DNA from: Pedosphaera sp.
GTDB taxonomy: Bacteria > Verrucomicrobiota > Verrucomicrobiia > Limisphaerales > SIBH01
Assembly (NCBI GenBank): GCA_031414955.1
Contig: JANOQV010000030.1
Coordinates: forward strand, 16,296-80,295
Reading direction: 5' to 3'
Length of the DNA: 64,000 bases
In this document: piece after piece, positions 1 to 47,053 of the stretch
Layout of the letters: each line of letters opens with the position of its first letter
Numbering within the stretch: the first letter of the stretch is position 1
Position numbers and translations under genes: made by a program
The notes under the pieces: model-generated
What the model was told of the DNA's origin: nothing
Database searches by the model: none
Seen by the model: the letters and a program-made list of their open reading frames with translations, nothing else

Positions 1-2
1 AC

Positions 3-956
3 AACAACCGGCCCCACAAGATTCGCTACTTGGTGCGCGAGGTGATCAAGGCCCGGCAAGAGTTCAACTCCAGTCCGGTCGTGACCACGCTCCACGATGG
101 CAGCGTGGTCGTGGCTTATAGCAGCAGTCGCGTTTACACCACGAACACGGTTGGTCTCAGCGAACGGGTGCGTTGGAATGATCGTCGGGAGATTTTCATC
201 ACCAACCGCACCCGCGTGCCCCTGAGTTTCAAAGCCGACGTCATGCAGGACGTTTACGTGCAGCGATTCTCTGGCACCGGAGCAAAGCTGGGCGCGGAAT
301 TTCGCGCCAACCAGTTCGCGGATTTTAACCAGCGGGATACGACCGTGGCCGCGCTTGAAAATGGCAGCTTCGTGGTGGCCTGGGCTTCGGAGCAGCAGCG
401 TACCAATTTTTATGCCGACACCTACCTGAACCCGGTCGATGTCTATGCGCGGATTTTCGATAACTTGGGCAACCCCTTGGGTGATGAGTTCCGCCTCAAC
501 ACCACCAACCGGGCCTCCGGCGGGCCGACGGTGGCCGCGACGGCGGGTGGCGCGTTCACCGTGGCTTGGACGCAGAAGTCCAATCAGCGCAGCAACGGAC
601 TCGACATTGTGGCGCGCACGTTCAACTCGGGCGGCACCGCTTCCAGCGATGTTTTTGCGGTCAACAGTTTCACCTACGGCGATCAGTACTCGCCCTCCCT
701 CGCCTCGGTCGGGGTCCAGCAAGTGGTGGTGTGGTCGAGCATGGGGCAGGATGGATCTCGGGAAGGCGTGTTTGCCCAGGCCTTGGATGGCTCCACGCCG
801 GTGGGCGCGGAGTTCCGGGTCAACGTCTCCACGCGCTTCAGCCAGTTTCATCCGCGGGTTGCGGGTGATAGCACGGGCCGGGCGCTGGTGTTGTGGTCGG
901 GCTACGCCTTGGACAGCGGGTTTGATTTGTTTGGCCGGAAATACCAGGCACCTTGA
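3..956 (+). CDS. 5'-truncated, probably exported repeat protein with 'EFRxN..Q..P.VA...G.FVVxW' repeats (probable beta-propeller)
   Basis: Frame is open from base 3 (NNRPHKIRYL...). Repeats seen: EFRANQF..NQRDTTVAALENGSFVVAWAS, EFRLNTT..PTVAATAGGAFTVAW, VFAVNSFTYGDQYSPSLA..VVVWSS, EFRVNVSTRFSQFHPRVA..LVLWS. Stop TGA at 954-956. Confidence 0.75.
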   Translation, partial: NNRPHKIRYLVREVIKARQEFNSSPVVTTLHDGSVVVAYSSSRVYTTNTVGLSERVRWNDRREIFITNRTRVPLSFKADVMQDVYVQRFSGTGAKLGAEFRANQFADFNQRDTTVAALENGSFVVAWASEQQRTNFYADTYLNPVDVYARIFDNLGNPLGDEFRLNTTNRASGGPTVAATAGGAFTVAWTQKSNQRSNGLDIVARTFNSGGTASSDVFAVNSFTYGDQYSPSLASVGVQQVVVWSSMGQDGSREGVFAQALDGSTPVGAEFRVNVSTRFSQFHPRVAGDSTGRALVLWSGYALDSGFDLFGRKYQAP

Positions 957-967
957 GCACGAATTTT

Positions 968-2386
968 ATGTTGCGGATCTGCAAAACTCTTTTGACCGGG
1001 GCGGTGACGCTGGCGGCGACGCAGTTGGCCATGGGCTTCGTGCTGCTGGGGCCGGGCGGCGCGGAAGGCAATGCCGCCAAGGACTGGCAGTTGCCAGCCC
1101 AGAATGACGGCTGGGAGATTGGTTACGGCTTGACCGGATCGATTGGCGCGCCCGTGTTTCCGTGGGAAGCCTACCGCTGCAATGTCCCGGTTCTCTACTA
1201 CGCCTTCGACCAGGCCTTCATCGCTTACTTCGGCACGAACGGCATGAAGGCCGTGGACAATGCGATGCGCATTCTGAACGAACTGCCCTCGGTTAATACC
1301 ATGTCCCGGAGCCTCTATGAGTTTCCGCTCTCGGCGCAGGGCGTTAATTATGAGGCGGCCGAGCTTGGGTTGGTGGATCTCAAATCGCAGGTGCTGCAAG
1401 CGATGCTTGAGCATTTGGGGGTGGAGGATTCGATCAACTGGGTTTACGGCATCCGCCAGCGGATCAATCTGCCCAACGATTATGGCGATTATACCGTCAT
1501 CAAGTACAACCTCGACCCCGTCACGCTCCTGACCTCCAGCTATGTGAACGGCACGCTTTGGACTTACAGCATCTTTGAAAACATCCCGACCCAGACTTCT
1601 GATGCGGTGGAAAATGTTCCGGCCGGACTCGAGAGTCAGCCCATTAACATCCCGGTGGGATCGCGTTCGTTCGCCCCGATTCCTGGCACGTTTTTCACCG
1701 GGTTGACCCGGGACGATGCTGGTGCGCTGCGCTATTTGCTCCATCCTCGCAACATCGTTCCCGAGACGCTTCTGCCCGGCATTCTGCCTGGGGGAACCGA
1801 AGGGTGGCTGCCGTTCCTTGGGACCAACTTTGCCGCCACCAACTCGACCCTGACCAACTTTCCAACCGTGGGTCTGCGGGGCGGCATCGGCAAGGTCCGC
1901 TTCCAGAAAGTCTATTTCGATTCCATCATCGGAACCGGTTTTGTCACCTTCACCAACCGCTACAAGGATTACGTTATTGCCACCAATGCGGAGTGGACCA
2001 GCCAATGGGTGCTGCGGCCGGTTCTTCAGCCGGACATCCTCTTCACGGCGGCGGATCTTGGGCCGGGACCTTACCTCAGCCGCACCACCTCGGCTGGCTG
2101 GATCAATGACGATTTGATTGCCGGCAGTTCCACTTTGGGCGGACCTGGAGTGATCACCGGTCCGGTGACCATCACTTTTAACCAGTTGCTTCCCTTCTTG
2201 AACAACATCACGCCGTCTTTCATCACCGAGCCGTTCCGCACCGACCCGCGCGCCCGCGGACTTTTAAGCCCGACTTGGGCGTCGTTTAACGGCACGACCA
2301 ACGCGCCCATCATCTACCCGCGTTTGCAGAACATTTCCCTGAACTATATCCGCAGCCTGGCCAATGAAGCGCCGGTCAACCCATGA
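968..2386 (+). CDS. Exported protein with degenerate matrixin (M10)-like motifs, probable pseudo-protease
   Basis: ATG 968 gives a signal peptide (MLRICKTLLTGAVTLAATQLAMG). DLKSQVLQAMLEHLGVEDS aligns gap-free to matrixin DLxxVAxHExGHxLGLxHS, and LTRDDAGALRYLL resembles the matrixin C-terminal helix LxxDDIxGIxxLY. Confidence 0.6.
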   Translation: MLRICKTLLTGAVTLAATQLAMGFVLLGPGGAEGNAAKDWQLPAQNDGWEIGYGLTGSIGAPVFPWEAYRCNVPVLYYAFDQAFIAYFGTNGMKAVDNAMRILNELPSVNTMSRSLYEFPLSAQGVNYEAAELGLVDLKSQVLQAMLEHLGVEDSINWVYGIRQRINLPNDYGDYTVIKYNLDPVTLLTSSYVNGTLWTYSIFENIPTQTSDAVENVPAGLESQPINIPVGSRSFAPIPGTFFTGLTRDDAGALRYLLHPRNIVPETLLPGILPGGTEGWLPFLGTNFAATNSTLTNFPTVGLRGGIGKVRFQKVYFDSIIGTGFVTFTNRYKDYVIATNAEWTSQWVLRPVLQPDILFTAADLGPGPYLSRTTSAGWINDDLIAGSSTLGGPGVITGPVTITFNQLLPFLNNITPSFITEPFRTDPRARGLLSPTWASFNGTTNAPIIYPRLQNISLNYIRSLANEAPVNP

Positions 2387-5300
2387 GCGCGACCCTCTCT
2401 CCCCTTGCCGTTATGAAGCGACTTAGCATCTTGTGGCTGGTGTTGTTCAGCGCCTTGGGAGTGTCGAAATCCTCGGGCGCGACCCCCGTGCCGCTCATCT
2501 TTGTGAACAACAATCCGGTCCAGCCGCCGGAACTGCCGCCGCAGATCGATGCCACGATTTTTTGGAATCGCGCCCTGTTCGTGGTTTCCAATGACTTCCT
2601 GTTTCCCGGCCTGTCCGTCCTGCCTTACTCGGGGAAGAGCGTGCGTTTTTGGACCAACAACAGCGTGATGCTCGGGTTGCCCGGCTTCGATTTCCAGTAT
2701 GTGCCCAATCGGGTTCATCTTACTCAGGCGCAGCGACTGCGCCGGGGTGCGAATCTGCCGCAGCCTTCCCGGCTGTTCTTCAATGACGGCCAGATCACGG
2801 TGTCCGATTACCTGTCCATTCGCGCGGTGAACATTGTCAATCCCGGCGCGCTTATCGGCGATCTGCGTGCCCGGGTCAACCTCACCACCACGAACGGGCT
2901 GGCCGACCTTTCACGCGGCGCGTTTCGTGTCGGAGAATTACCGCTCCCGGAATGTTCCACGGGGGGAGGATTTTTCTTCGATCCGCAGTTGCGCAACATT
3001 TACGCCAGCATCGGCACCAACGGTTCGGTGAACAGCAATCAGTTCTGGGCTCCCTTCACTTTGTCTTCTCTGGGTAACAGCTTCACGCCGATTGGTTCTG
3101 CCCCGCCACCCTTTCAGCGTATTCAGATCAACGCCATCTACCCCGGTGCCCCCGCGACCAACCGGAGCACGAACCTGATCTTTGGTCTCACGAACTGCGG
3201 TGATTACGGTTCTTTCGTCCACGTTGTGACCAACTTGACTACGGTCGGCTTAATCCAAGTTACCAACTTGAACGTGAACATGGTCTTCGTTCCGACGAAC
3301 GGATTCACCGAGGGCACGACCGTCGATGTGGGCTTCCCGTTCGGCGGCCTGGCGGCTCCCGTTGTGCAGTTTCGCACGCCGGATTTCGATGTCATCGGCC
3401 AGAAGTCGCTCACGAATTTTCTCAACTTCACGGACTCTGGCAATGGAGCCAGGATTTACCGGGGCCGCGACTGCTTCTTTGATACCTACCAGAAGTCCAA
3501 CACGCCCTACGCGCCCGGGCTGTTCCACGATTTCCGGTTTGAGACCAACCGGCTTTACACCTACTCGGCGTCCCTGAATCAGATCGGCAACACCAACTCG
3601 TTTTACCATACCAACCTGCTCTCCGCGCTGGTCTTCACGGAATTGGGCAAATCTCCGGCGGCGAGCGATCCGACCAATTACAACGGCCTGGTCCAGATCA
3701 AGGCACTCCGTCTAAACCTGGCCCAGGCGCGCATCCGCGGAGAAAATGCCGTGGACATTTACACCAGCAACCTGGTGGACATGACCGACTCGGCCATCGA
3801 CTCGCCCTTTATTAATTTCGATGTCAGCACGACTAACAATACCCTGGTGGTCTCCAACCTGTTCCGCCCGATCGTGAATCGTTTGCAAGCGACCTTGGAA
3901 TCGTGGACGGCGGTGTGGACGTCCAGCGTCACCAACGGATTATCCACCAACGTGGTCAATGGCACGAATGTTGTGACGCCCATCCTTGCCACTTGGAATT
4001 ATCGCGTGCTGGTGCTTGGAGCCTGCATCGCGACCGAGCAGCCGGCCATCATGCACAAATTTACGCTCCACGCGGACAACATGATCATCAGGGACAAGCT
4101 GGCGGTGAACAATGCGCTGCGTCTGGACGGGAAGACGCTGCACTTTGGGCCCGGTTCCGGCCTGTCGCTGCCTTTCAACACCAGCCTGGCTTTCACCAAC
4201 CTGATCGGCATCACCCGGCTGACCAACGAAGGAGTGCTCAACATTCCGCGGGCCGCGTTCTTCGGGTCGTTCGTGGATGGTTATGTGCAGCCTCCCAGGC
4301 GGAGGACGGGTCGCGCGCCCCGGCCGCGCCTCGTCACTTACGAGAGCCTGGTCAACCGCAACACGATTTCCGCCGCCAGCTTTTCGACCCGCGCGAACTA
4401 CGTGGAGATTGCCGGCCCTCAGTTCTTCCCCGCGCTGCTGGAGGCGAACAACGGTTTGATCGAGATCAACGGGGCCACGGTTGTGGTCAGCAACGCCGTG
4501 GTGCGGTCGCAGTCGGACATTCTAATTACCGCCGGCAATTTGCTCGCCACGAGTTCCACCTTGGTGGCCGGCACCAACGGCACGGTGGGCAATTACATTC
4601 CTGGTGCGCTGGTCATTGATGCCACGAACTCCATCACGGACGGTGGTCCCAACGCGGGCAACCGCTGGCTGGTCACGAGCGGGGCGCGGATTCTGCGTCG
4701 TCCGGCCAATGGTGGTGATCTGATGGGCACGCGCCTGGTTTCCAGGGCGAGCACCTTTGCCAAGTCCGTTATCAGTTGGGCCGGCTTGAACCTCGGCTCC
4801 AGTCCTTCCGGCTTCACCAATAATCTTGCGCTGGGCCGCCTGACCCTGGATGGCGCGGTGGGCACGAGCTTCCGTTTCAAGAGTGCCGGAACGGGTAACG
4901 CGATCTACATCGACTATCTGGAGATGATCAATTTCCCGACGAATTTCAGCCTCGCCAGCGTGCTGTCGGTGGATCCGGATTTCACCCTCTATTTTGCCGA
5001 CTCGAACATTCCAGCGGGCAACTTGACCAACAACTCAGGCGGACGCATCCGCTGGGTGAGCGACTTCGCCGGCCCGCAAAGCTCGACCAACATCACGTAT
5101 CCGAACGGCCTGACCTACACCTTCAACTCCGCTTTGGTGCGGAGCCGGGACTTGGATTCGGACGGAGACACCATTTTTAATGGCAATGATTGCACGCCGT
5201 TGGCCGTGCCCGGCTTTGACAGCACCCAGCCGTGCCCGCCCGCCCCGGATGTGGCCGGTGTTTCCGCGACGGCTTCGGCCGACCTTGGGTTGAGTATCTC

Positions 5301-5514
5301 GCTGGATGGATCGGGCCAACAAGTCGTGCTGGACTGGACTGCGCCGGCTGCCTCCGCGAACACGGTCGAGTTCAGCGACTCGGTGACGACGGATGCGTGG
5401 CAGACTTTGACGAATTTTATCAATGGTCCAGTGACAGCACGGGTGACGGTGAAGGATGCCGTAGGCGCTCCCCTGCGCGTTTACCGCGTCCGGGTGGACG
5501 CTGGCAAACCGTGA
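2383..5514 (+). CDS. Exported beta-rich hypothetical protein (1043 aa) with DxDxDG Ca-binding-like loop and shared C-terminal domain
   Basis: ATGA overlap with the upstream stop. Hydrophobic signal peptide (KRLSILWLVLFSALGV). DLDSDGDTIFNGND motif. C-terminus VVLDW...W...RVYRVRVDAGKP. Confidence 0.8.
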   Translation: MSATLSPLAVMKRLSILWLVLFSALGVSKSSGATPVPLIFVNNNPVQPPELPPQIDATIFWNRALFVVSNDFLFPGLSVLPYSGKSVRFWTNNSVMLGLPGFDFQYVPNRVHLTQAQRLRRGANLPQPSRLFFNDGQITVSDYLSIRAVNIVNPGALIGDLRARVNLTTTNGLADLSRGAFRVGELPLPECSTGGGFFFDPQLRNIYASIGTNGSVNSNQFWAPFTLSSLGNSFTPIGSAPPPFQRIQINAIYPGAPATNRSTNLIFGLTNCGDYGSFVHVVTNLTTVGLIQVTNLNVNMVFVPTNGFTEGTTVDVGFPFGGLAAPVVQFRTPDFDVIGQKSLTNFLNFTDSGNGARIYRGRDCFFDTYQKSNTPYAPGLFHDFRFETNRLYTYSASLNQIGNTNSFYHTNLLSALVFTELGKSPAASDPTNYNGLVQIKALRLNLAQARIRGENAVDIYTSNLVDMTDSAIDSPFINFDVSTTNNTLVVSNLFRPIVNRLQATLESWTAVWTSSVTNGLSTNVVNGTNVVTPILATWNYRVLVLGACIATEQPAIMHKFTLHADNMIIRDKLAVNNALRLDGKTLHFGPGSGLSLPFNTSLAFTNLIGITRLTNEGVLNIPRAAFFGSFVDGYVQPPRRRTGRAPRPRLVTYESLVNRNTISAASFSTRANYVEIAGPQFFPALLEANNGLIEINGATVVVSNAVVRSQSDILITAGNLLATSSTLVAGTNGTVGNYIPGALVIDATNSITDGGPNAGNRWLVTSGARILRRPANGGDLMGTRLVSRASTFAKSVISWAGLNLGSSPSGFTNNLALGRLTLDGAVGTSFRFKSAGTGNAIYIDYLEMINFPTNFSLASVLSVDPDFTLYFADSNIPAGNLTNNSGGRIRWVSDFAGPQSSTNITYPNGLTYTFNSALVRSRDLDSDGDTIFNGNDCTPLAVPGFDSTQPCPPAPDVAGVSATASADLGLSISLDGSGQQVVLDWTAPAASANTVEFSDSVTTDAWQTLTNFINGPVTARVTVKDAVGAPLRVYRVRVDAGKP

Positions 5515-5648
5515 TGGGGCGAGTCTTGTGCCGGCTCGCCGTCTCATCCCGTGCGCTGGCTTCGGTAGAGAAAAAGTGTCGCAGCCTGCTGGGTGAACTC
5601 GGGTTCACGCCGGTGGGAGCGTCACCAAACAGTTAAGCGCGCAATCAC

Positions 5649-8600
5649 ATGAAGACGTTTCGTTGGCTCGCGGCAGGGGTGTTTCTAGCACTCCTCATCG
5701 CGCTGGTTTTCTGGCGAACCAGCGGGAGGGACGTGGTCGGGTCATTTTCTCCCATTCCGTCGGTTTCGCCGGCCTTGGTCTCCGTCGCGCCCGCGCTGGT
5801 CGCGCCCGCCGATGTTTCCGCTCCAGTGGCCTCGCCGGTTGCGCCCGCCACCGTGTCCGGCACGAATGCTCCTCTGGTTTCCTTCGAGAGTTGGGTGCGT
5901 GATTTCTTGGTCAGCGATGTCTCGGCCCGGCCCGCGCTGGCGGCGCAAGGCGCGCAACTCGTCTCCGCCCGGCAAGAGGAGATGGCCGCTCTCATTCGCA
6001 CCAATCCCGAGGAAGCCATCCGGCGGTCCTTGCCATATAGCGTGCGCAAACAACTGCCGCCGGAAATCGCCTCCCAAATCGAGCAACCGGTGAGCGGGCG
6101 TGGTTCCTTCCGTCCGCTCTATTACGTCCCGTTGCCCGGCCGGGAGAGCGAGGTGCCGCCGACCGGTTACGAAGTCACCATGAACGGCACGGATTACGAG
6201 ACCCACGCTTACGGGGATCGGCTTCATCATCCGGCCCGGGATGGTGCTTATCTGCACGGAGTGTCGGTGAAAGAGCGCGCAAAGACGAAACCGTTGCTCG
6301 CCTTGAGCGATGAGGCCCACCGGCTGATCACAGACCGGGGAGAGGCGCGGGATTTGGTGAGCACGGGGCAACTTCAGGCCGATGCTTTATGTGGTGTCAC
6401 GAAAAAGCCTGCCTCGTCGGATCAGCCCGTGATTTCCCAATACGGCGAGCATTACTATGCCTTCTGCGAGCCGGCTCATGCGAAGCAACTGAATGCCACC
6501 TTGAAGCGGGCCAGTGCGGTGAGTTGGGCTTTGGGGGGCGCGGGCAAGGTTTCCGGTCCGAACGCCACCAATGTTCAATTCGAGGGCTTCAGCCGCACCC
6601 AAGGCCGCAAGAAGCTGCTCTACATCCGGGTGTTGTTCGCGGACGACATCAATCCACCGCAGACCGACGATCAGGCCCAGGCCACGGTGCTGGCGAACAA
6701 TCGATACTTTCATGAAGGTTCCTACGGCACGGTCTGGTGGGAATCGACCGTCACGCCGCTGATCCGTCTGCCCCAGCGCAAGAATTATTACGGTGAGAAT
6801 GAAGGCGCGCTGCTCGGAGATGCGCGCAACGGTGCCGCCGCTCTCGGTTATTTTCCCGGTGATTATTTTGGTCCCTCTTACGTGCTCTGCACCAGCATGC
6901 CCCAGTATCTCTATGGTGGTATTTCGAGCGGCGTCTTGAACGGTTCTCCCGGTGCGATCACGCATGAATTGGGCCATAACTTTAATCTGCCGCACGCGAA
7001 TTTCTGGCAACCCGAAGGCTCCCTGCCGGGCCCGGTGCAACCGCAGAACCTGTCGCCTTGGCCCATCGACCCGGATGCGCTCAACGGCCACAACGACATC
7101 AACGCGCCCTACATCATTGGACTGGGTGGTGCCCAACCCTCGCAGGAGTACGGCAATCCTCGCGACGTGATGGGCAGCGGTCCCGGTCACTTCAGCGCCG
7201 TGGCCAAGCGATACATGGACTGGCTCCCGCAGGATTTCGTCAAGACCGTCACCGTCAGCACGACCAATCGCCTCTACGCCTTTGACACCCCGCGCATCGA
7301 TCGCGGTCGGCTCTATGCCATGCAGATTCGCAAGGACGTGACCCGGGAATACTGGTTGAGCTACCGGCAGGGATTCGCGGCCAATCCATGGTTCTCCAAT
7401 GGTCTCGAAGTGGAATGGAACCTCGGCGGTGAGAACGTGGACGAAACCTTCATCATGTTCGGCAACGAACTCATCGACACCACGCCGGACACGAGCTACG
7501 GGAAAGAGGATGCCGCGCTCATCGTGGGGCGCACTCTTTCCGACCCCGCTGCCAGTCTCCACATCACGCCCATCGCCCGCGGCGGCGGGCCGGTTTCCTC
7601 TGACAAATGGATCGATGTCGTGGTCATGAAGGGAAGCTTCCCCGGCAATCAGATTCCGACCATGACTCTGGAGGCCAGTGCGCTGACCGTGGCGCAGGGT
7701 GCGATCGTGGATTTTACCGTGATCGCGCAGGACGCCGATGGTGATGCCCTGGCTTACAACTGGGACTTCGGCGACTGGACCTTCGGGACCAACGGGCCGG
7801 TGCAAAGCAAGACCTTCAACGCCAACGGCCAGTATGTGGTGCGTTGCGAGGTTTCCGACATGAAGGGTGGGCGGGCCAGCCGCCAACTCGTCCTCACCGT
7901 GGGTTCACCCACGACCTACACCATCAGCGGGCGCGTGCTCGACACCGAAGGCAATCCGGTCGAGGGCGTGCGCATCCATAACAACGGCGTGCGACCGGTC
8001 AATCCCCCCGCCGATCCTTATGCCCCTTACACGAACGCGCCGGTGGACGTCGGCACTTACCGCTACGGCTATACCGACACGGACGGCTTTTACGTGATCG
8101 GCAATGTGCCCGACGGCACCTACGTGGTGCGAGCCTTCAAGTACGGTTACAGCACCATGCCCCTGGACTTCACCGACCCGGTGAATGTGAATGGCAACGC
8201 CTCCGGCCTCAACTTCACCGCCACCAAGCTGGCGCGGGTCAGCGTCGCCTGGACCGCCGACGCCACCGAGCCGGGGGACGAGTACGATCCGGCCGAGGAC
8301 GGCGTGTTCACCATCACGCGCGAGGGCGGCGAATTTTCCCAGGACCTGCCGGTGGTGTTTACCATGAGCGGACGGGCGCTTTATGATTTCGACTACGGTC
8401 TGGCGGGCACGGACAACCTGGCCACCAATTGCGTGTACGAGACCAACGGCACGGTCATCACCACCAATTGCGTGGTCTTCACCACGCCGCGCGGGCAGTT
8501 AATCATCCCCGCCTTCCAGTCCTCGATTGATGTGCATGTGATCCCCACCAACAATTTTCTTGGCGATGGGGCCAAGTCCGCGGTCATGACGCTCATCCTG

Positions 8601-11600
8601 CAAACCAATTTCACCCGCGTGACCACGGTGCTGACCAACTTCCTCGTCACTAACCAGCCCGGCAACATTGTCGTCACCAATTCGCTCTTCGTGCAACGGA
8701 CCAACCAGTTCCGGGTGCCGGGCTGGGAATTGCGCCCCTTCGGCCCTTCCGGCACGCCGACCTGGTTCCAGACCGATCCGACCTACGTCCTCGACCAGGC
8801 CGAAGCGACCGTGAACATTCTGGATGACGACGAACCAGATCCCCCGACCGTGTCCGTCTTCACCCTGGATTTCGACGCGCACGAAGCGCGGGGGGACAGC
8901 GCCATGATGGCGATCGTTCGGCAGGGCGCGCCGTTGGACCAAGATTTAGTGGTGCATTACGAGACGCCCGACGTGAGCGCGTTTTACAGTCCGGCGCTGA
9001 ACGGAGAGGATGTGGCGCTGCTCTCGGGCACGATCACCATTCCGGCCGGACAGTCGTTTGCTCTCCTGCCCGTGGTGGCCATCAACGACCTGTTTGTCGA
9101 AGGCAACGAGATTCTCTTCGTGAACATCCTCGAGAGTCCGGAATACTTCACCGGATTTGCGGACGGCATGATCGTGGTGGATGACGACCTGCCGCAGGTG
9201 AACATCTTCACCTCGGTTTCGACCGTGGCGCGCAACGGTGGTTCGGCCCGGGTGACCCTCTCCCGCGTGGGCAGCGTGGATGAGGACTTGACCGTGAACT
9301 ACCTCGTCACGGGCACGGCCGTCAGCGGCGTGGACTTCACCACGCTCTCCGGTTCCGTGGTCCTCCCGGCCGGCCAGTTGAGTGTGGACGTGAACATCAA
9401 TCCGATTCCCACCAGCACCAATCCGCTTCCCCGCACCGTGACCATCGTGATCTCCGATTCCACGACGTATAACATCTACCAGCAGAACTCGGCCACGGTG
9501 ACGATCATCGACCAGAACCTGCCCACCGTGACCCTCGCCCGATCAGGGGACACGATTTCTGAAAATGGTGGCACCTCCACCTTTACTGTCACGCGCACCG
9601 GAGCCATCACCAACAACCTGAACGTCTTCTTCGACACCGGCGGGTCGGCCTGGGAAGGCTCGGATTACGCCAGCGTCGGCACGAACATCATCATCCCGGC
9701 CGGCTCGATCACGGCCGGCATCGTCATCACGGCCATCAACGACAGCGCCCGCGAGTTCGGCGACACCTGGGGGGACGACACCGTCATCGTACGACTGCGG
9801 GCTAACACCAACTACACGCTCGGCGGTACCGTCAGCCAGACCATCCGTATCGTGGATGATGAAGGCGACACGGCCCTGCCCTCGGTGGGATTCATGCTCC
9901 AGCGTTCGAGCGTGTTCGAAAATGCCGGTCAGGCCCGGATTTTCGTGAAGGTCACGGCCAACCCGGCCACCAACCGGCCCATCGAAATCGAGTACCGGGT
10001 AACGGCCGGCAGCGCCACGCCCAACGTGAACTACGTGAATTCCTTCCCCGATCGCCGCGACCCCACTGGCCAGAGCGTTACTGGCATTCTCAACATCACG
10101 CACTACTTTCCGCCCAACCCGCCGCCCCGGTTTTATGATCTGGAGAATGGCATTTACACCATCCCGGTGACGGTGCTCGACGACTTGGTCGCGTCCGGCG
10201 ACAAGACGGTGACCATCACGCTCTTCAACCCGACGGGCTACCAGACCAACCGCTCGCTCGTGACCAACGGTGGGATTATCTACACCAACTTCCTGATCAC
10301 CCACCTTCCGACCAATGCGTTTCTCGGGCCGGCCAGTTCCCACACCCTGACCATCCAGGATTTGAAGACCAGCACTGTGACCCTCGCGGCCACGGCGGAG
10401 CGGACCTATGAGGCCGGGCCGGTGCCGGGGCAGTTCATCTTCACGCGCGACGGTGCGACCAACGTGCCGTTGACGGTTTATTTTGCCCTGGAGGGCACGG
10501 CGGCCAGCGGCAGTGATTACGTGCCGGTCGGGACCAACATCACCATACCGGTCGGCACCAATTCCGTGGCGCTGACCCTGATGCCCATCGACGACCCCAC
10601 CGAGGAAGTGGCCGAGACCATGATCATCCGGCTGCTGCCCAGGTCTGGTTATCATTCCGCCTTGGGAGCCGGGGCCGGGATGATCATTGTGTCCGATGAC
10701 GGCACGATTCAGTTTGGCGCGGCCGAATACAATTTCAGCGAGAACGCCGGCTTTGCGGTCGTGCCCGTGGTTCGCACGGGCGGCACCAATCTGGCCGGGA
10801 CGGTCGATTACCTGATCACGGGCGGCACCGCCACCAACGGGGTGGATTACCTCGGCACGAACGGGACCCTCAGTTTCCTTCCCGGCGAAGACGTCAAATC
10901 CATCATCCTCCCGCTCGTGAACGAAAGTCTGGTGGAGCCGGATGAAACCATTCTCCTCGTGTTGACCAATGCCACGGGCGGCGTGCCCCTGGGTGGCCAG
11001 CGCACGACCACGGTCAACATCGTGAACGACGACACGGCCTTTGACTTTGCCGTGGCGGCGTTCCGGGCCAATGAGAATGCCGGACTGGGCACGGTCATCG
11101 TTACTCGCACCGGCGTGCTGACCAACACCGACACGGTGTGGGTCACGATCACGAACCTCATCCCGCCCACGGTCGGCATCGCCGGCCCACTGGACTTTGT
11201 CCCGGCCGCGCACTTGCTCACCTTCAATCCGGGCGAGACGAACCGGCCTGTGTCCTTGACCTTGCTTGATGATGAATTGTTTGAAGGGGACGAAAACATC
11301 AGTCTGCGGTTGAGCCAGCCCAGCGGCAGCCTCCAGTTGGGCGCATTGAGCAACGCGGTGCTGGTGATCGTGGACGATGAGTGCCGTCTCGACTTCGAGG
11401 TGACCGGCTACTCGGTGAAAGAGTACTCGAATTTCGTCACTCTGGTCGTGCGTCGCGTGGGCGGCACGGTCAACCCGGTCACGGCGCTTTACACCACGGG
11501 CGACGGCACGGCGACCAACGGCTTTGATTTTGCCGGCGTGACCAACACGGTTTCCTTCCTCGGCGATCAGTTGGTCGCGGACACGAACGGCTCGGGTCAG

Positions 11601-17096: not shown

Positions 17097-17196
17097 TCAA
17101 CTTGCGCCTAGAATTATCTGTGTGCGAGAACTTGCGCCCTCCGAACGAAGCGAACGGCGCGGAGCGGGAATTCCGGGCATTTTAGAGTTTTTGAGT

Positions 17197-25149: not shown

Positions 25150-25176
25150 CGGACAGCAGCAATTTTGCGAAGAACT

Positions 25177-39483: not shown

Positions 39484-39588
39484 CGAATGGAATGAAGTTA
39501 GGTGGCGCGAAGAGCGCTTGAATTTATCGCCGGACGCAGGCGGGACGTTTCCGCCCGCGTTCGCGCGTTTTTTGGATGGTTAAGTGAT

Positions 39589-42500
39589 ATGAAACGCACT
39601 CTTGTTGCTGTGTCGGCCCTGTTGGCGGTCTCCGCCCTGGCGGTTCTCCCTCCCGGGAGAGCACCGCTGCCCAACCTCGATCGGCGTGCCTCGCGGGCCG
39701 CGAACCTGCCCAACGAAGTGGCGCCCGAGCAGGCGGTCGCCGTGTCGGCCTTGCGCTCCCGCGTGCCGGGCCTGAAGGTCACGCGCAGCGTGGTGCTGGG
39801 ATCGCCGGTCTTTTTCTCCTCGACCGACGCGCTGCTCACCGGGCCGGACGCGCAGGGTCTGGGCGTGCTGCCGGCCACGGCCCAAGGCATCCCATCCAAC
39901 GATCCGCATCGCGCGGTCAAAGCCTTTCTCAACGAACACGCCGGATTGATCGGATACAACGCCAGTGCCCTGACGGGTGCCCGCGTGAGCCGCGACTACG
40001 TGGCCACGCACAACGGGATGCGGACCGTGGTCTGGCAGCAGGAGTTGAACGGGCTGCCGGTCTTCGAGGCCATCACCATGGGGCACATCACTTCCCAGGG
40101 CGAACTGGTGAACCTCTATTCGCATTTTCTGCCCGACGCCAGCACGGCGGCGGCGCGCGGTTTGAAGGGGCGGGCTACGGTCGCGGCGGCGGCGGGTGCG
40201 GTTCAAATCTCGGTGCTGACGGCCATGTCCGTTGCGGCCGGCAATCTCGGGGATGTGGTTGCTCCTGGATCGTTGACCAGCCTCGGCGCGGCCCAGGGTC
40301 CGGCGCTCAAGCAGACGTTTCGTGGCTCGGGCGCGCTCAATGGCGACCAATACGGCGAACTGGTCTGGCTGCCTATGAACTCCGGCCTGGCCCGGCTCTG
40401 CTGGCAGGTCATCATCACCAGCAAGGCGCGCGGTGAAATGTTCCTGCTCCTGGTCGATGCCGAGACCGGCGAGGTTTTGCTGCGGCGCAATCTGACCAGT
40501 TACATCACCAACTCGACCTACAACGTGTGGACCAGCGACAGCCCTTCTCCCTTCTCGCCCGGTTATCCCACGCCCGGAAATCCGGCCCAGCCGGCGGTCA
40601 TCGCCCGGACTCTCGTGACCATCCCGGCTTTGAACACCAACGCCTCGCCGCTCGGCTGGATCGCCGAGACCGTGAACGAGACGCTGGGCAACAACGTCGA
40701 TGCGCACACCGACCACAACGACAACAACCAAGCCGACCTCCCGCGGCCGACGGGCAATCCGTTCCACGTTTTTGATTTTCCGATCGATTTGGCCAAGTCG
40801 CCGACCAATTACAGCACGGGCGCGGTGGTGCAGCTCTTCTACTGGAACAATTTCGTGCATGACAAATTGTGGGAGATGGGTTTCACCGAGGCGGCGGGCA
40901 ATTTTCAGACGACGAATTTTGGGCGTGGTGGCCTGGGCAATGATGCGGTGCAGGCCGATGCCCAGGATGGTGGAACCCTGAACGACGGGTTTCATGTCAA
41001 CAACGCCAACATGTTCACGCCGCCCGACGGTTTTCCGGCGCGGATGCAAATGTATCTGTTCGATGGCACGGATCCCGACCGGGATGGCGATTTCGACGCG
41101 GAGATCATCATCCACGAATACATGCATGGCCTGAGCAATCGCCGGGTTGGAGGCGGCATCGGGATTAGCACCCTGCAAGCGGCGGGCATGGGGGAAGGGT
41201 GGGGGGATTTTTACGGCTTGAGCATGCTCAGTGAATCCAACGACCCCATCAACGGCGAATGGGCCATGGGCGGTTATGCCACACTCAATTTTGCCGGCCT
41301 CAACCTGACGGATAATTACTACTTCGGCATCCGCCATTTTCCGTACTCCACGAATCTTTTGAAGAACCCGTTCACCTTCAAGGACATCGACCCGACTCAG
41401 ATCAGTCCTCATGCTGGGATTCCCCGCAGTCCGCTGTACCTTCCGTACACTCCCTTCGAGGCCGATGAGGTTCACCATCAGGGCGAAGTGTGGTGCGTAA
41501 CCTTGTTCGAGATGCGGGCCAATCTCATTGCGAAGTACGGCTTCGCGGGCAACCGGGTCGCGCTCCAACTCGTGACCGATGCCATGGCCTTGTGCCCGCC
41601 CAACCCTAACTTCCTCCAATCGCGCGATGCCATTCTGCAGGCCGACGTGGTCAACAACACCAACGCCAATTACGCCGAGATTTGGAAAGCATTTGCCAAG
41701 CGTGGCATGGGGAGCAGCGCGACCTCGCCGAACAGCACGACCACCGTGGGCGTCCATGAGTCCTTTGACTTCCCGGGCCTGGCGGTTACGACGGTCGCGG
41801 TGAATGACGTCTTCTCCGGCAATGGCAACGGGGCCATCGATTTCAATGAATGCGTCGAGATTTCGGTGGGGTTGCGCAATAACTCCGTCACCACGGCCCG
41901 CTCGGTGTCCGGCACCCTGCGGACTACGACTCCGGGGGTGACCATCGCCCAGTCCAACGCCGTCTATGCGGATCTGGCGCCGGGTGCCTCGGGGTTGAAC
42001 CTCACGCCTTACCGTGTTTATACCGATCCGACCTTTGTTTGCGGCACCCCTATTCAGTTCGCGCTCGTGGCTTCGGCCATCACCACCACGCAGTCCGTGA
42101 CCACGAATTTGTTTCAGTTGCGCAGTGGCTTCGTGAGCCTCAACCCCACGTTGATCAACAACAGCACGCCGGCCAGCATCCCGGACGGCAGCACCAACGG
42201 GGTGGAGTCGTTGATCAATGTTTCTGGTCTCGCGGCCGCCGTGGGCAAGATCACAGTTTCTCTCCATCTTACCCACACCTACGCCAGCGACCTTCTCCTC
42301 CAGTTGATCGGCCCGGATGGCACCACGGTGGACCTCTCCCAAAATCAAGGCGGGGCCGGGCAGAATTTTGGGGCGAGCTGCAGCCCGACGACCTTGCGCA
42401 CCACTTTTGATGACAACGCGCCCCAGGCGCTGAGTTCCGCAGTCGCACCCTTCATCGGCACGTTCCGTCCGGATGAAACTTTGACCGCCTTCGCGGGTAA

Positions 42501-45500
42501 ATCCGGCGCGGCTTTGAACGGCACCTGGCGTCTGCGGATCGTGGACGGCTTCCCGCAGGATGCCGGGACGTTGCAGTGCTGGACCTTGGCGCTTTATCCC
42601 ACGCTCTGCACCAATGGCGGAGGCACCTGCGTTTCCGACGTGGCGCTGAACGCCACCGCCGCGCCCGACCCGGCTGTGGCGGGCTTTGATCTGACCTATC
42701 AACTTGCCGTGACCAACAGCCGCCCGATCCCGGCCTCCGCTGTGGTGCTCACCCATGTCCTTTCCTCGAACGCCACCTTCGTTTCCGCCCTCTCCAGCCA
42801 GGCGGCTTGTGCGTTCAACAACGGCACCGTGACATGCGTGTTCGGCACCTTGCCGGTTGGGGCCAATGCCAGTGCCACCATCGTGATCCGGCCGCTCGCC
42901 GTGGGCCTCATCAGCAGCGTCTTCTCCGCTGGCTCCTCCACGCCGGACTCCAACCTTTCCAACAATGTCGTCACGCTGAACTCGGTCGTAATCGGGCCGG
43001 CTCCGGCCTTTGCTGCCGCCGGCGCGCAGGTCGTCGCCGAGAGCATCGCGCCGCCAACCGGTGGCATTGAGGCCGGAGAGACGGTGTCCGTGAACCTGGG
43101 CCTGCGTAACGTCGGGCCGATTGCCTCGGGGAACCTCGTGGCCACTCTCATCGAGGGCAACGGAGTAATCGCTCCTGGTGCCGCCCAGAGTTACGGCGCG
43201 ATTGCTTCGGGCGGCGTGGGGACGCAGTTGTTTTCCTTCTCGGCTCCGGGCGCGCCCGGCACCTCCATCGACGCCGTGTTGCAACTTCAGGATGGGGTGC
43301 AAAACCTGGGTGTTGTTACCTTCCACTTCACCGTCGGTGGCGAGGTCACGTTCGAGAACAACGCCCCCATCGTGATCAACCAGTTTGGGGCCTCGACGCC
43401 GTATCCGTCCGTGATCAACGCCGGCGGCGTGGTCGGCTCGCTGGCCGGGGTGCGGGCCACGTTCACCAAGCTCACCCACAGCTTTCCCGATGACATCGAC
43501 GCTTTGCTGGTCAGCCCGCAGGGGCAGAGGCTACTGCTCATGTCAGACGCGGGAGGCAACGTCGCGATCACCAACCGTACGCTTACTTTCGACGATGCGG
43601 CGGCCGGCCCGTTGCCCAACGAGACGGGCCTGGTGGCGGGCAGCTTCCGTCCCTCAAATTTCGATTCCGGCACCGAGCCGGGCGGAGACATCTTTCCCGC
43701 GCCCGCGCCCGTCGGTTCACTCATCACTTCCCTGGCGGGCTTTGCCGGCAGCGATCCGAACGGGCCTTGGTCGCTGTTCATTCACGACGATGGCGGTGGG
43801 GATGCCGGCTCGGTTTCCGGTGGTTGGTCGCTGACTTTGAACACGGTTTATCCGGTCAATCCCTTGGCCGATCTCGCCGTGACGGCCGTGGCGGTTCCCG
43901 CTGCGCCCATCCTTGATGAGCCGCTCACCCTGATCCTGACTGTGACCAATCTTGGCCCTAGCAATGCGCCTTCCGTGGTCCTGACCGACGTTCTCCCGGC
44001 CGGCAGTTCCTTCGTGAACGGTTCCGCCAGCCAAGGCGGGGGAGTGAGTTTCGCTGCTGGAGTCGTGACGGCGAATCTTGGCTCGATGAACGTCGGCTCC
44101 AGCGCCACGGTCACGATTCAATTGACACCCACAGCCCTCGGCCTGGCCGTCAACAGCGCCACCGTCTCGGGTGCTTTGACTGATCTGGTGCCCGTCAACA
44201 ACACCGCTATCACGGCGCTCACGGTGGGCAGTCCCGTGGGTGATGTGTCGCTGTCGGTCGTCGCTTCGGCCCAGCCGGTGTTCCTCTCCAGCAATGTCGT
44301 CTTCACCGTGCTCATCACCAATCGCGGTCCGAACCACGCCGCCCATGTGCAGGCCGGCACTTTCATGGCCTCCGTGCTGAGCGTGGTCTCCGCTGTCACG
44401 ACGCAGGGTGGATGTGTTTTCGCCAGTGGCCAGGCGCTCTGCGACCTCGGCGATCTTCCGGCCAACGGCAGCGCGGTCGTGACCATTACCGCCGTGGCTT
44501 CGTCCATCGGTTCGGCCCCGGCCAATTTCGCCGTGAGTTCCGACCCGACCGACCCCGTGCCGGCCAACAACTCGACCAACCTGCTTTGCACGGTCATTCC
44601 GACCTCGCCGGTGATTGTTCCGGCTGGCTCCGCGCTGCTCAACGAAGCCCTTCCGGCCAACGGCTCCATTGAATCAGGCGAGACCGTGACCTTGAGCTTC
44701 GGCCTGCGTAACGTCGGCAACGCCGACGCCGCGGACCTCATCGCCACGCTCCTTCCAACCGGTGGCGTCACTGGCCCGGGCGGACCGTTCCATTTCGGTG
44801 CGCTGCTCGCGAACGGTCCCACCGTCTCGAAGCCTTACAGTTTCACCGCGGGCGGCGCTCCGGGCAGCGCGCTCACGGCCACATTCCAGTTGTCGGACAA
44901 CGGGCAAAGCCTCGGCACGGCGGTGTTCGCCTTTACCTTGAGCGCGAGTCGCTCCTTCACGAACAGCAACCTGATCATCATTCCCAACCAGGGACAGGCC
45001 ACGAATTATCCTTCAACGCTCAACGTCTCCGGCATTGCCGGCGCGGCCAGCCGGGTGACCGTGAATATCAAACAGTTGACTCACACCTTCCCCGAAGACA
45101 TCGACCTGCTCCTCGTTGGTCCCGCCGGGCAGAAAGTGCTGCTCATGTCCGACGCGGGCGCGGGCAATGCCGTCAGCGGCGTCAACCTGACTTTCGACGA
45201 CGCGGCCACGGCGCTGCCGTTTAGTTCTATTATTTCCAGTGGCACCTATCATGGGACGGATTATCCGCCTGGCGACACGTTCCCGGCTCCCGCTCCGGCT
45301 GGGCCTTACGGCACCAATCTCGCCGTGTTCAACGGGATCAATCCCAACGGCACCTGGTCGCTCTACATCTTTGATGACGCCGTCGGCGACGCGGGCCGTG
45401 TCGATGGTGGTTGGACCCTGAACATCCAGACCGCCGCTCCCATCGTCTCCGCTGCGGATGTCGCGGTGACGGCGATCGCCCCGACGGTCGTCGAATCTGG

Positions 45501-46014
45501 CACGCCTTTCAGCTACGTGCTGACGGTGGCAAATTTCGGACCGGCACCCGCCACTGGCGTCACTTTGAGTGATTCGTTGCCGGCGGGTTTCATCCTCAGT
45601 GGCGTCACGGTCAGTCAGGGCAGCTACAGCACTGGTCCTGGCACCATCACGGCAAACCTTGGAGCGCTCGCCCTTGGTGCCACCGCCACCGTCACCGTGA
45701 ATGGTGCCGCCGTCGGGCCGATCACTCTCGTGAATCTCGTCTCCGTCAGCGCGGTTCAGGCCGATCCCAATCCGGCCAACAATCTCCTCGCGCCGGCGAC
45801 GACGGTGAACGCGCTTGCCCTCACCATCCAGCGCAGCGATGGCAACGTAATCATCACCTGGCCGTTCCCGGCCCCGGGCTACGTCCTGCAATCCGCCGCC
45901 ACCATCGAGGGGCCGTTTACCAACTCGGGCCTTTCCGTCACGACGGTCAACGGTCGGAACCAGGTCGTCGCGCCCGCCACCGGATCGACCTACTACCGCC
46001 TCCAGAAACCGTAA
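39589..46014 (+). CDS. Exported M36 (fungalysin-type) metallopeptidase (~2140 aa) with FTP/PepSY-like propeptide, three P-domains, DUF11 repeats, shared C-terminal domain
   Basis: Signal peptide MKRTLVAVSALLAVSALA. Propeptide motifs WQQELNGLPVFE and LVDAETGEVL. GFTEAAGNFQ, NNANMFTPPDG..RMQMY, HEYMHGLSNR at 41113 and GMGEGWGD are M36 signatures. Ends TYYRLQKP. Confidence 0.9.
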   Translation: MKRTLVAVSALLAVSALAVLPPGRAPLPNLDRRASRAANLPNEVAPEQAVAVSALRSRVPGLKVTRSVVLGSPVFFSSTDALLTGPDAQGLGVLPATAQGIPSNDPHRAVKAFLNEHAGLIGYNASALTGARVSRDYVATHNGMRTVVWQQELNGLPVFEAITMGHITSQGELVNLYSHFLPDASTAAARGLKGRATVAAAAGAVQISVLTAMSVAAGNLGDVVAPGSLTSLGAAQGPALKQTFRGSGALNGDQYGELVWLPMNSGLARLCWQVIITSKARGEMFLLLVDAETGEVLLRRNLTSYITNSTYNVWTSDSPSPFSPGYPTPGNPAQPAVIARTLVTIPALNTNASPLGWIAETVNETLGNNVDAHTDHNDNNQADLPRPTGNPFHVFDFPIDLAKSPTNYSTGAVVQLFYWNNFVHDKLWEMGFTEAAGNFQTTNFGRGGLGNDAVQADAQDGGTLNDGFHVNNANMFTPPDGFPARMQMYLFDGTDPDRDGDFDAEIIIHEYMHGLSNRRVGGGIGISTLQAAGMGEGWGDFYGLSMLSESNDPINGEWAMGGYATLNFAGLNLTDNYYFGIRHFPYSTNLLKNPFTFKDIDPTQISPHAGIPRSPLYLPYTPFEADEVHHQGEVWCVTLFEMRANLIAKYGFAGNRVALQLVTDAMALCPPNPNFLQSRDAILQADVVNNTNANYAEIWKAFAKRGMGSSATSPNSTTTVGVHESFDFPGLAVTTVAVNDVFSGNGNGAIDFNECVEISVGLRNNSVTTARSVSGTLRTTTPGVTIAQSNAVYADLAPGASGLNLTPYRVYTDPTFVCGTPIQFALVASAITTTQSVTTNLFQLRSGFVSLNPTLINNSTPASIPDGSTNGVESLINVSGLAAAVGKITVSLHLTHTYASDLLLQLIGPDGTTVDLSQNQGGAGQNFGASCSPTTLRTTFDDNAPQALSSAVAPFIGTFRPDETLTAFAGKSGAALNGTWRLRIVDGFPQDAGTLQCWTLALYPTLCTNGGGTCVSDVALNATAAPDPAVAGFDLTYQLAVTNSRPIPASAVVLTHVLSSNATFVSALSSQAACAFNNGTVTCVFGTLPVGANASATIVIRPLAVGLISSVFSAGSSTPDSNLSNNVVTLNSVVIGPAPAFAAAGAQVVAESIAPPTGGIEAGETVSVNLGLRNVGPIASGNLVATLIEGNGVIAPGAAQSYGAIASGGVGTQLFSFSAPGAPGTSIDAVLQLQDGVQNLGVVTFHFTVGGEVTFENNAPIVINQFGASTPYPSVINAGGVVGSLAGVRATFTKLTHSFPDDIDALLVSPQGQRLLLMSDAGGNVAITNRTLTFDDAAAGPLPNETGLVAGSFRPSNFDSGTEPGGDIFPAPAPVGSLITSLAGFAGSDPNGPWSLFIHDDGGGDAGSVSGGWSLTLNTVYPVNPLADLAVTAVAVPAAPILDEPLTLILTVTNLGPSNAPSVVLTDVLPAGSSFVNGSASQGGGVSFAAGVVTANLGSMNVGSSATVTIQLTPTALGLAVNSATVSGALTDLVPVNNTAITALTVGSPVGDVSLSVVASAQPVFLSSNVVFTVLITNRGPNHAAHVQAGTFMASVLSVVSAVTTQGGCVFASGQALCDLGDLPANGSAVVTITAVASSIGSAPANFAVSSDPTDPVPANNSTNLLCTVIPTSPVIVPAGSALLNEALPANGSIESGETVTLSFGLRNVGNADAADLIATLLPTGGVTGPGGPFHFGALLANGPTVSKPYSFTAGGAPGSALTATFQLSDNGQSLGTAVFAFTLSASRSFTNSNLIIIPNQGQATNYPSTLNVSGIAGAASRVTVNIKQLTHTFPEDIDLLLVGPAGQKVLLMSDAGAGNAVSGVNLTFDDAATALPFSSIISSGTYHGTDYPPGDTFPAPAPAGPYGTNLAVFNGINPNGTWSLYIFDDAVGDAGRVDGGWTLNIQTAAPIVSAADVAVTAIAPTVVESGTPFSYVLTVANFGPAPATGVTLSDSLPAGFILSGVTVSQGSYSTGPGTITANLGALALGATATVTVNGAAVGPITLVNLVSVSAVQADPNPANNLLAPATTVNALALTIQRSDGNVIITWPFPAPGYVLQSAATIEGPFTNSGLSVTTVNGRNQVVAPATGSTYYRLQKP

Positions 46015-46035: not shown

Positions 46036-46632
46036 ATGAAACTCTTCGGGCTGACCGGCGGGATCGGGATGGGCAAATCCACCTCGGCCGGCCTGCTCTC
46101 CCTCGGCGGGATTCCTGTCCTCGACACCGACGTCATCGCGCGGGAAATCGTCGAGCCGGGGCAGTCAGCCCTCACTGAGATCGCTGCGGCGTTTGGGGTT
46201 GAACTGATTGATGCCGAAGGGAAACTCCGCCGCGCCGCGCTCGCTGAGATTGTCTTTTCCTCGCCGGAGAAATTGAAGGAACTCGAAGCCATCCTGCATC
46301 CTCTCATCCGCGAACGCTGGCGCGGCCAGGCGGCGCTCTGGCGGCGGGAAGGCCGGTTGGCCGGCGTGGTCATCATTCCTCTTTTGTTCGAGACCGGTTC
46401 TCAGTCGTACTTCGATTCGATCCTTTGCACCGTCTGCTCACCGCGCACCCAGCAGGAACGATTGGTCGCGCGGGGTTGGCCAGAACACCAGATCCAGCAG
46501 CGCCTGGCTGCGCAATGGCCGGTGGAAAAAAAGGTGGCCGCCTCGAATTTTGTGATCTGGACCGAGGGCGTGATGGAAATCCATCTCCTCCAGTTGCGGC
46601 GTATCCTCGGCGATTACCTGCCCCCACGCTGA
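46036..46632 (+). CDS. coaE: Dephospho-CoA kinase
   Basis: GLTGGIGMGKST P-loop, DTDVIARE, LEAILHPLI, IPLLFE. Confidence 0.95.
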   Translation: MKLFGLTGGIGMGKSTSAGLLSLGGIPVLDTDVIAREIVEPGQSALTEIAAAFGVELIDAEGKLRRAALAEIVFSSPEKLKELEAILHPLIRERWRGQAALWRREGRLAGVVIIPLLFETGSQSYFDSILCTVCSPRTQQERLVARGWPEHQIQQRLAAQWPVEKKVAASNFVIWTEGVMEIHLLQLRRILGDYLPPR

Positions 46633-47018: not shown

Positions 47019-47053
47019 GCGGCCACCCTAAGCCAGGCCGGGCGTGATTGGAA
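47019..47053 (-). promoter_or_regulatory. Putative sigma70 promoter for a leaderless transcript
   Basis: Minus strand reads TTCCAA-17nt-TAGGGT-6nt-GTG. Confidence 0.4.

Follow-up and report, generated by a model that had tools for sequence, protein, structure and literature searches.

A conserved secretin-linked gene core with an interchangeable slot for giant exported proteins in Limisphaerales: a candidate surface adhesion-and-proteolysis coat

Seven genes for exported proteins lie behind a secretin operon

We analysed a stretch of 64,000 nucleotides from the genome of a Pedosphaera sp. of the order Limisphaerales (Verrucomicrobiota; contig JANOQV010000030.1, positions 16,296 to 80,295 of the forward strand), hereafter the window, which is part of an 80-kb contig. 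Window positions 3..46014 hold an array of seven co-oriented plus-strand open reading frames (ORFs), here lettered A to G, that an earlier note had interpreted as a candidate adhesion and proteolysis apparatus of the cell surface. Gene A is cut by the window edge, while the six complete proteins, B (472 aa), C (1043 aa), D (3815 aa), E (2650 aa), F (4768 aa), and G (2141 aa), amount to 14,889 aa, in agreement with its estimate of about 15,000. Its description of same-strand genes with gaps of at most 134 bp and a single ATGA overlap is borne out by the ORF positions, as the intergenic distances are 11, -4 (the overlap), 134, 100, 27, and 105 bp for likely ATG starts at 968, 2383, 5649, 17197, 25177, and 39589. 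Export-like hydrophobic N-terminal segments, which the note had reported for all six complete proteins, were seen by eye in each of them and in full-length A; the N-terminus of D, likewise judged by eye, resembles an uncleaved signal anchor rather than a cleaved signal. The features of the locus are as follows, with L001 coordinates referring to a region that reaches upstream of the window.

L001:8274-10196, same strand as the array: PilM/N fusion
L001:10198-11070, same strand as the array: PilO-like protein
L001:11073-11891, same strand as the array: PilP-like protein, no family match, assigned by position
L001:11917-14745, same strand as the array: secretin
L001:14790-15695, same strand as the array: 5'-3' exonuclease, between the secretin and A
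1..956, plus strand: 3' part of A in the window (full ORF L001:15629-17251, likely start near L001:15785)
968..2386, plus strand: B, metzincin-like pseudo-protease without a zinc-binding motif, mostly single-copy and order-specific
1379..1429, plus strand: degenerate active-site helix of B
2383..5514, plus strand: C, Thr-Asn rich, no family match, ends in the shared tail
5296..5511, plus strand: tail on C
5649..17096, plus strand: D, with a metzincin domain, PKD, 9 Calx-beta, a delta-60 propeller, P-domains, DUF11, and the tail
6963..6995, plus strand: zinc-binding motif of D, HExxHxxNxxH, followed by a Met-turn near residue 508
16878..17093, plus strand: tail on D, a predicted six-stranded FN3-like beta-sandwich
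17197..25149, plus strand: E, with 11 Calx-beta, 18 delta-60/DUF5122 stretches, and the tail
24931..25146, plus strand: tail on E
25177..39483, plus strand: F, with 18 Calx-beta, 25 delta-60/DUF5122 stretches, a P-domain, DUF11, and the tail
39265..39480, plus strand: tail on F
39589..46014, plus strand: G, with an FTP propeptide, an M36 fungalysin-type metallopeptidase, P-domains, DUF11, and the tail, without Calx-beta or delta-60
45796..46011, plus strand: tail on G
46036..46632, plus strand: coaE (dephospho-CoA kinase), downstream boundary of the slot and an ancestral neighbour of the secretin operon

The earlier note had seen no secretion channel, which is correct inside the window, but a PilM/N-PilO-PilP-secretin operon on the same strand ends 1,551 bp before window base 1. 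As coaE starts 21 bp after G, the co-oriented run, with the upstream operon, comprises 13 genes over ~54.6 kb. A promoter and terminator scan of window positions 1-18000 stayed at shuffle level (5 versus 3.3; 16 versus 17.3) and is uninformative on co-transcription.

A, B, and C form a conserved core and the giants are its variable part

B was found in 35 of the first 41 relatives and, among order genomes at least 90% complete, in 141/151, with C in 129 of the same set; both genes are mostly single-copy and near-universal in the order. Elsewhere in the phylum B was detected in one of 250 genomes, weakly, and B had no match in a single-protein scan of named genomes. In 34 relatives selected for long contigs and family spread, the order secretin-(exonuclease)-A-B is intact in 32 and C comes next in 31, with the A-position gene of one relative assigned by position and tail only; the two misses are B paralogues away from a secretin. 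A separate scan yielded 239 loci. The best 80, all titled as metagenome-assembled genomes and possibly overlapping the genomes of the 34 relatives, form a further set, which has the secretin upstream in 60/63, A directly upstream of B in 75/77, and C downstream in 68/69 evaluable loci. Across dozens of families A-B-C is kept directly behind the secretin at about 25-60% identity. The locus is therefore syntenic across the relatives and not scattered, which were the two outcomes between which the earlier note had proposed to decide. Outside the order, none of 20 genomes has A, B, or C downstream of the secretin, and coaE lies within ~4 kb of the secretin in 12 of them, so that A-B-C plus slot is an order-specific insertion into an ancestral secretin-exonuclease-coaE operon.

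Two complete secretin-A-B-C loci occur in one bin of 4% contamination (G015, contigs C2 and C37; L050-L053), reflecting duplication or mixed binning, and some small genomes carry several B paralogues distant from the secretin. In another class, a Dpy19-like (GT-C) membrane protein of ~690 aa lies between exonuclease and coaE, exactly in the A-B-C position (L128:171-2261, plus strand; L130:13819-15906, minus strand; and equivalents); its family, PF10034, occurs in 52/250 phylum genomes and in none of the listed same-class families.

The interval between C and coaE, which we term the slot, is variable. A large tail-bearing gene is present in it in 25 of the 31 relatives that have A-B-C and absent from it in six; a Calx-beta/delta-60 giant occupies the slot in 13 (and lies just beyond coaE in two more) and a recognisable protease in 18, some of these contigs ending inside the slot. 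Within the 80-locus set, 27 of 58 loci open the slot with a protease (13 S8, assigned by one Pfam scan and BLAST, 10 M36, and 4 D-like metzincins), the other 31 having in that place a Calx-beta/delta-60 protein without a recognised protease (12), coaE (9), a tail-only protein (3), or an unannotated one (7). Proteases and Calx-beta/delta-60 giants thus recur in the same slot across many families, as expected from the earlier note, whose picture of the giants as a conserved unit did not survive the comparison: the D-E-F-G order recurs in none of the 34 relatives, and proteases flank the giants on both sides in one, so that two stalks between two proteases is not a set design. The giants are the variable part of the locus, and the small genes A, B, and C its conserved core. 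An orthologue of D fills the same slot in four relatives (G003, G007, G009, and G336), slot proteins reach 9,640 aa, and delta-60 proteins occur somewhere in 119/151 order genomes. One relative's slot holds four genes of 9,640, 4,791, 1,971, and 4,186 aa (L094:11316 onward into L095, L149, and L150), and in another (G002, L033) a giant of 2,808 aa is read in a different frame from its tail, the two frames overlapping, probably through a frameshift or an error of assembly.

In same-class genomes of other orders, a large exported protein lies directly behind the secretin in five of eight. Two of these, from one order, are metzincin-like PPC-repeat giants of 4,576 aa (L139:255-13982, plus strand) and 3,090 aa (L141:10415-19684, minus strand), whose ends resemble the tail by eye; the tail profile gave no score. 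Such giants are apparently an independent use of the same slot.

B resembles a dead metzincin-like protease

In the active-site helix of B the first His is replaced mostly by Ser, Gly, or Ala, the catalytic Glu by a hydrophobic residue, the second His by Glu in 121 of 134 sequences, and the third His mostly by Asp, Ser, or Glu. HExxH is absent from this helix in all 134, two of which carry the string elsewhere, and HExxHxxG occurs in 0/81 B-type ORFs of a separate set. An AlphaFold2 model of B is confident (predicted local distance difference test (pLDDT) 90.2, predicted template-modelling score 0.90). Foldseek found no match to it at E 0.001 or better, and a wide fold search reached Z 4.6 at best; many of its top rows are metzincins, with matrix metalloproteinases (MMPs), astacin, and ADAMTS scoring Z 3.3-4.2. 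Alignment to the MMPs and to astacin covers about residues 25-263 of B; the match to MMP-20 is weak (Z 3.7, root-mean-square deviation (rmsd) 2.7, 96 aligned). The Atlas offered Peptidase_M10 for B, with a score of 0.81, as a lead only. The earlier note had called this gene dead-protease-like, which we consider reasonable, but the link to the metzincin fold is weak. Several B homologues are much longer, at 700-1,640 aa (L094:3692-8602, L079:14660-17032, and L092:13993-18234), with large insertions rich in Thr-Asn at a single internal site and, in some cases, an Ig domain at the C-terminus.

Full-length A, of about 490-540 aa (about 488 aa from the likely start) and with its start outside the window, is built of repeats and is likely a beta-propeller; it has no family match, and GH43 matches, seen in 6/34 members, are weak. 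C gave no useful match in Pfam or NCBIfam scans and no named Atlas match. Sequence searches of the PDB with the B alignment, the protease region of D, and A returned no match at E 1 or better.

The giants combine Calx-beta spacers, delta-60 propellers, and proteases

Calx-beta or delta-60 repeats, which the earlier note had ascribed to the array as a whole, were found by Pfam and NCBIfam in D, E, and F and are absent from the M36 giant G and from the three small genes. The acidic Calx-beta motifs are kept in many repeats. P-domains and DUF11 are common to D, F, and G. D, which has six DUF5122/delta-60 stretches, falls in the metzincin clan by its HExxHxxG/NxxH motif and Met-turn; the Gly of the motif is Asn here and is kept as Gly by the four slot orthologues. 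The note's protease at 5649 therefore stands as a metzincin, but its assignment to M11/M6 is not supported at cut-off, as the M6 model TIGR03296 scored 17.2 versus 110.8 bits, M11 gave no match, and matches to M66 and M12B were weak. Inspection of the sequences and of their Pfam/NCBIfam matches found no catalytic motif in E or F. The M36 protease that the note had placed at 39589 is confirmed, with G matching PF02128 at 356 bits against a cut-off of 23.3 (E 2.8e-106) and its HExxH and downstream Glu intact; the FTP propeptide scores 20.9 against 21 bits, and G lies below the cut-offs of three sortase- or T9SS (type IX secretion system)-dependent M36 models. No RTX repeat arrays are present; the note had seen no RTX motif, but one isolated RTX-like GGxGxD hexamer occurs in G, and none in the other six proteins. 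Recent DNA duplication among the giants was considered and rejected, the best internal matches being 72-80% over 82-300 bp plus one 39-bp repeat.

A shared C-terminal tail marks about a tenth of the genome

Five of the seven proteins, C to G, end in a shared domain of ~65-70 aa with the terminal motif Y/F-R-x-x-x-P, which the earlier note had missed. A here lacks it; across the loci, the tail is present on A in 58/75. The AlphaFold2 model of the D tail (pLDDT 88.9) has its best VIA match to FN3 domains (Z 6.6, rmsd 2.7, 70 aligned), and Foldseek listed nothing for it at E 0.001 or better. Neither Pfam nor NCBIfam yielded a convincing model for the tail. Of the T9SS tail models, TIGR04183 of NCBIfam matched 0/5 window tails and PF18962 matched 0/47 tails; no T9SS tail is listed among the fold-search rows, which does not exclude one. 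Profiles detected the tail in 201 ORFs of the genome and in no reversed ORF; it is terminal in 185 (243,619 aa, about a tenth of the genome) and internal or N-terminal in 16. No other run of tail-tagged exoproteins in this genome is as large as the array, which amounts to 14.5 k aa; the second largest has 6.1 k aa. The tail also occurs in 108/250 other genomes of the phylum, nearly all without B.

The upstream operon is related to the Amuc_1098-1102 locus and to type IVa pili

PilM, the PilO-like protein, and the secretin are distant homologues of Amuc_1101, Amuc_1100, and Amuc_1098 (E 5e-147, 9e-26, and 5e-104), and miss the NCBIfam cut-offs of these families (491/650, 91/180, and 349/750 bits, respectively). 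The order of the PilM/N gene, the Amuc_1100-like gene, the gene in the Amuc_1099 position, and the secretin gene matches that of the Amuc_1098-1102 (MUL2) locus. According to PMC4960237, Amuc_1098 is an abundant outer-membrane secretin in Akkermansia, and PMC13174399 describes the MUL2 genes as a type IV-like pilus for glycan attachment, conserved in Akkermansiaceae. TIGR01175 scores over its cut-off in the upstream operon (141.8/133), as does PF00263 for the secretin, and the genes make up the PilM-N-O-P-Q alignment and secretin set of a type IVa pilus. Two pilin genes lie 7 kb upstream of the secretin operon. These are tandem type IV pilins of 114 aa (L001:294-638 and L001:768-1112, plus strand) beside a YfhO-like GT-C membrane protein (L001:1052-3421, minus strand), possibly a pilin glycosylation pair, the GT-C gene being non-syntenic in relatives.

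The genome further encodes five PilT-family ATPases above cut-off, at least four full-length PilB/GspE-type ATPases that score just below both family cut-offs, and four secretins in total. The other three secretins, on contigs C54, C146, and C22 of this assembly (G000; L160, L161, and L163), are alternative candidate channels, and one of them is a 43% paralogue of the operon secretin. GspK, the minor pseudopilin of type II secretion systems (T2SS), gave 0 matches in the genome, which is 95.9% complete, with the control positive in 10/14 genomes. Neither PilY1 (PF05567) nor the SprA translocon (TIGR04189) had a match in the genome, the control being likewise silent for each.

Thr-Asn is in excess in exported proteins of the order

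In 109 tail proteins the dipeptide Thr-Asn was observed 2,239 times against 933 expected from composition, far above every other dipeptide; Ser-Asn is not enriched and Asn-Thr is depleted. Pro and Asp are scarce at the residue following Thr-Asn, and Lys, Arg, Glu, and Asp are scarce two residues on. The ratio of observed to expected falls from 2.36 in tail proteins to 2.05 in signal-like, 1.74 in membrane, and 1.16 in cytoplasmic-like proteins, these being rough hydropathy classes on uncurated ORFs. N-x-S/T reaches 1.2x versus 2.4x for Thr-Asn. Among order genomes, this one included, 27/33 have a ratio of at least 2, the six below it having been sampled at fewer than 3,000 aa; it is ~1 or less in all six proteins sampled in the class's other orders, and for other classes it lies at 1.9-3.7 in 12 of 14 proteins, the excess there extending to several families. 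One locus (L122) yielded no protein to score. Thr-Asn sites fall in many different columns of the B and C alignments; some are fixed and many are rare. The bias is compartment- and lineage-specific, as expected of a periplasmic glycosylation signal, for which we regard it as a candidate; a structural preference of beta-rich proteins is the alternative.

Candidate enzymes acting on Thr-Asn were rejected. N-glycosylation of the PglB/STT3 type has no PF02516 match in the genome (the control was positive in four archaea), in the regions compared, relatives do not retain the YfhO-like gene that lies 5 kb upstream of PilM, a gene that matched 1/250 phylum genomes, and the Dpy19-like gene of the other class has no match in this genome. 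No Thr-Asn signal appears in the accessible portion of a review of O-glycosylation (PMC12645811).

Genes downstream of the slot

Window positions 46036-64000 carry the housekeeping genes coaE, glgB, hisI, trpE, sufE, and tatD, together with the following.

55210-56610: PQQ-repeat propeller
58050-59828, minus strand: TPR protein
60767-62188, minus strand: unannotated membrane protein
62685-63997: ExbB/ExbD pair

Discussion

Our tentative reading, to which we give a probability of roughly 0.45, is that the 13-gene Limisphaerales locus encodes a coat for adhesion and proteolysis, displayed at the cell surface, for which the adjacent secretin is the probable export channel. All seven proteins would cross the inner membrane by Sec, as their N-termini suggest, and may be glycosylated in the periplasm, to which the Thr-Asn excess points; the secretin machine would then carry them across the outer membrane, with the FN3-like tail as a putative sorting or docking tag, two roles suggested by linkage. 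The earlier note had proposed no particular export route, and the adjacent secretin operon and the shared tail are now candidates for it, their action on the proteins being putative. The propeller-like A, the dead metzincin B, perhaps with a binding or scaffolding role, and C would form a fixed platform, with the cargo swapped between lineages. Calx-beta arrays are stiffened by calcium, an established behaviour, and in the giants the Ca-bound arrays would be rigid spacers bearing delta-60 propellers for binding, with the S8, M36, and metzincin domains on these spacers digesting proteinaceous particles or matrix. A broader version, in which the Amuc_1098-type secretin and an A-B-C platform form an undescribed display pathway that exports and anchors the ~185 tail-tagged proteins, first glycosylated at Thr-Asn, and in which the slot holds interchangeable primary cargo, we consider unlikely.

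Several observations weigh against export through the adjacent secretin. As the tail is found in genomes without B, A-B-C cannot be a general tail receptor, and of the 185 ORFs that bear the tail only 8 have one of the genome's four secretins within 50 kb, the other 177 being spread over 105 contigs. The secretin family occurs in 173/250 phylum genomes, including 20/20 of a genus in which the tail was found in 1/20. The presence of housekeeping genes, the exonuclease and coaE, in the run means that linkage alone need not imply shared function, and the nine loci of 58 in which coaE directly follows C indicate that the core can stand without linked giants. Finally, five PilT proteins and the absence of a GspK match fit a retractile pilus better than a dedicated secretion system. 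Much of this would be accommodated if the association were mere neighbourhood, with A-B-C and the giants being ordinary exoproteins in a strongly expressed operon, served by a separate phylum-wide export route, and the secretin working for the pilus only. The scatter of the tail ORFs, the differing distributions of tail and secretin, a slot that is variable and sometimes empty, and the unrelated Dpy19-like gene in the same position in another class all agree with such an arrangement; we nonetheless rate it as somewhat improbable, since retention of A-B-C behind the secretin across dozens of families at such divergence is not what one would expect of a passive landing site, and unrelated giants fill the post-secretin position in other orders as well.

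The type IVa character of the operon suggests instead that A-B-C replaces tip or priming proteins of the PilY1 type, the giants being tip-borne or shed adhesins and proteases that capture particles or prey in the manner of MUL2. The homology of the upstream PilM/N-O-P-Q-like genes to Amuc_1101, Amuc_1100, and Amuc_1098, the two nearby pilin genes, the complement of PilT and PilB/GspE-type ATPases, the propeller-like repeats of A, with its weak GH43 matches, and the glycan-attachment pilus described for MUL2 in PMC13174399 speak for this reading. However, the run contains no minor-pilin genes, A and C share their tail with ~180 unrelated enzymes, most members of the phylum have the pilus operon without A-B-C, and no PilY1 similarity was seen, though the control for it was silent, so that we find a role at the pilus tip doubtful. 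Alternatively, the proteins could form a periplasmic scaffold or an S-layer-like lattice in which the tail is a polymerisation or wall-docking module rather than an export tag, given that Sec-type N-termini alone predict no location beyond the periplasm, that the tail is a small FN3-like sandwich found internally or N-terminally in some ORFs, and that nearly every genome of the order has the core, a distribution common among envelope genes. The turnover of S8, M36, and metzincin cargo and sizes of up to 9,640 aa are better suited to outward-facing, niche-dependent proteins, and the closest M36 models are all of surface-sorted types, making an envelope scaffold highly improbable.

Elements of the surface coat that we favour are found in known systems. 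The PilM-like, Amuc_1100-like, and TPR-bearing secretin genes lie in the same order as in the Amuc_1098-1102/MUL2 locus, but all three proteins here are under the family cut-offs, no A-B-C or giant slot follows the secretin in the 20 genomes outside the order, and the tail is rare in the genus that holds over-cut-off secretins. The nearest published precedent is in Omnitrophota, where giant genes are preceded by a T2SS-like locus (10.1101/2023.11.21.568195), and the accessible part of that source likewise describes giant adhesion or degradation proteins of the PVC group, with variable domains, behind a conserved secretin-type locus; its giants are much larger, some with C-terminal membrane anchors and SecA-like domains, whereas those described here measure 2,100-4,800 aa (and as much as 9,640 in relatives), have N-termini of the Sec type and the FN3-like tail, and are accompanied by a fixed A-B-C core. 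T9SS cargo of Bacteroidota (TIGR04183/PF18962) similarly has a ~70-aa beta-sandwich closing more than 100 diverse exported proteins, including M36 peptidases, but the tails here have no sequence match to T9SS models and their best folds are generic FN3. Giant adhesins of the LapA/BpfA/RTX type contain Calx-beta and are exported by type I secretion systems (T1SS). They share with the giants long arrays of calcium-binding beta-sandwich repeats and distal binding domains; the proteins here differ in having N-terminal export signals and no RTX repeat arrays, and no T1SS genes were seen in the locus.

Literature searches, made mostly at the level of listings and abstracts, found no publication on A-B-C or a Thr-Asn signal in Verrucomicrobiota or on the tail, though supplements of Akkermansia and giant-gene papers may bear on these points. 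The giants are made up of known domains. In the literature searched we came across neither the order-wide secretin-A-B-C core and its interchangeable slot, nor the uncatalogued B and C families, nor the Thr-Asn signal, and no described outer-membrane route for the tail proteins turned up. Limisphaerales are mostly uncultured, and in this genome about a tenth of the DNA encodes exported proteins that bear the uncatalogued tail, for which the locus provides a short, order-wide list of candidate machinery (the secretin operon and A-B-C) and natural cargo. B is a pseudo-enzyme specific to the order and near-universal in it; with a confident model but no close match among solved folds, it is both a marker gene and a structural target, and the Thr-Asn bias predicts a bacterial glycosylation signal. 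The locus also widens the Akkermansia Amuc_1098-1101 system to include a lineage that has apparently re-equipped it.

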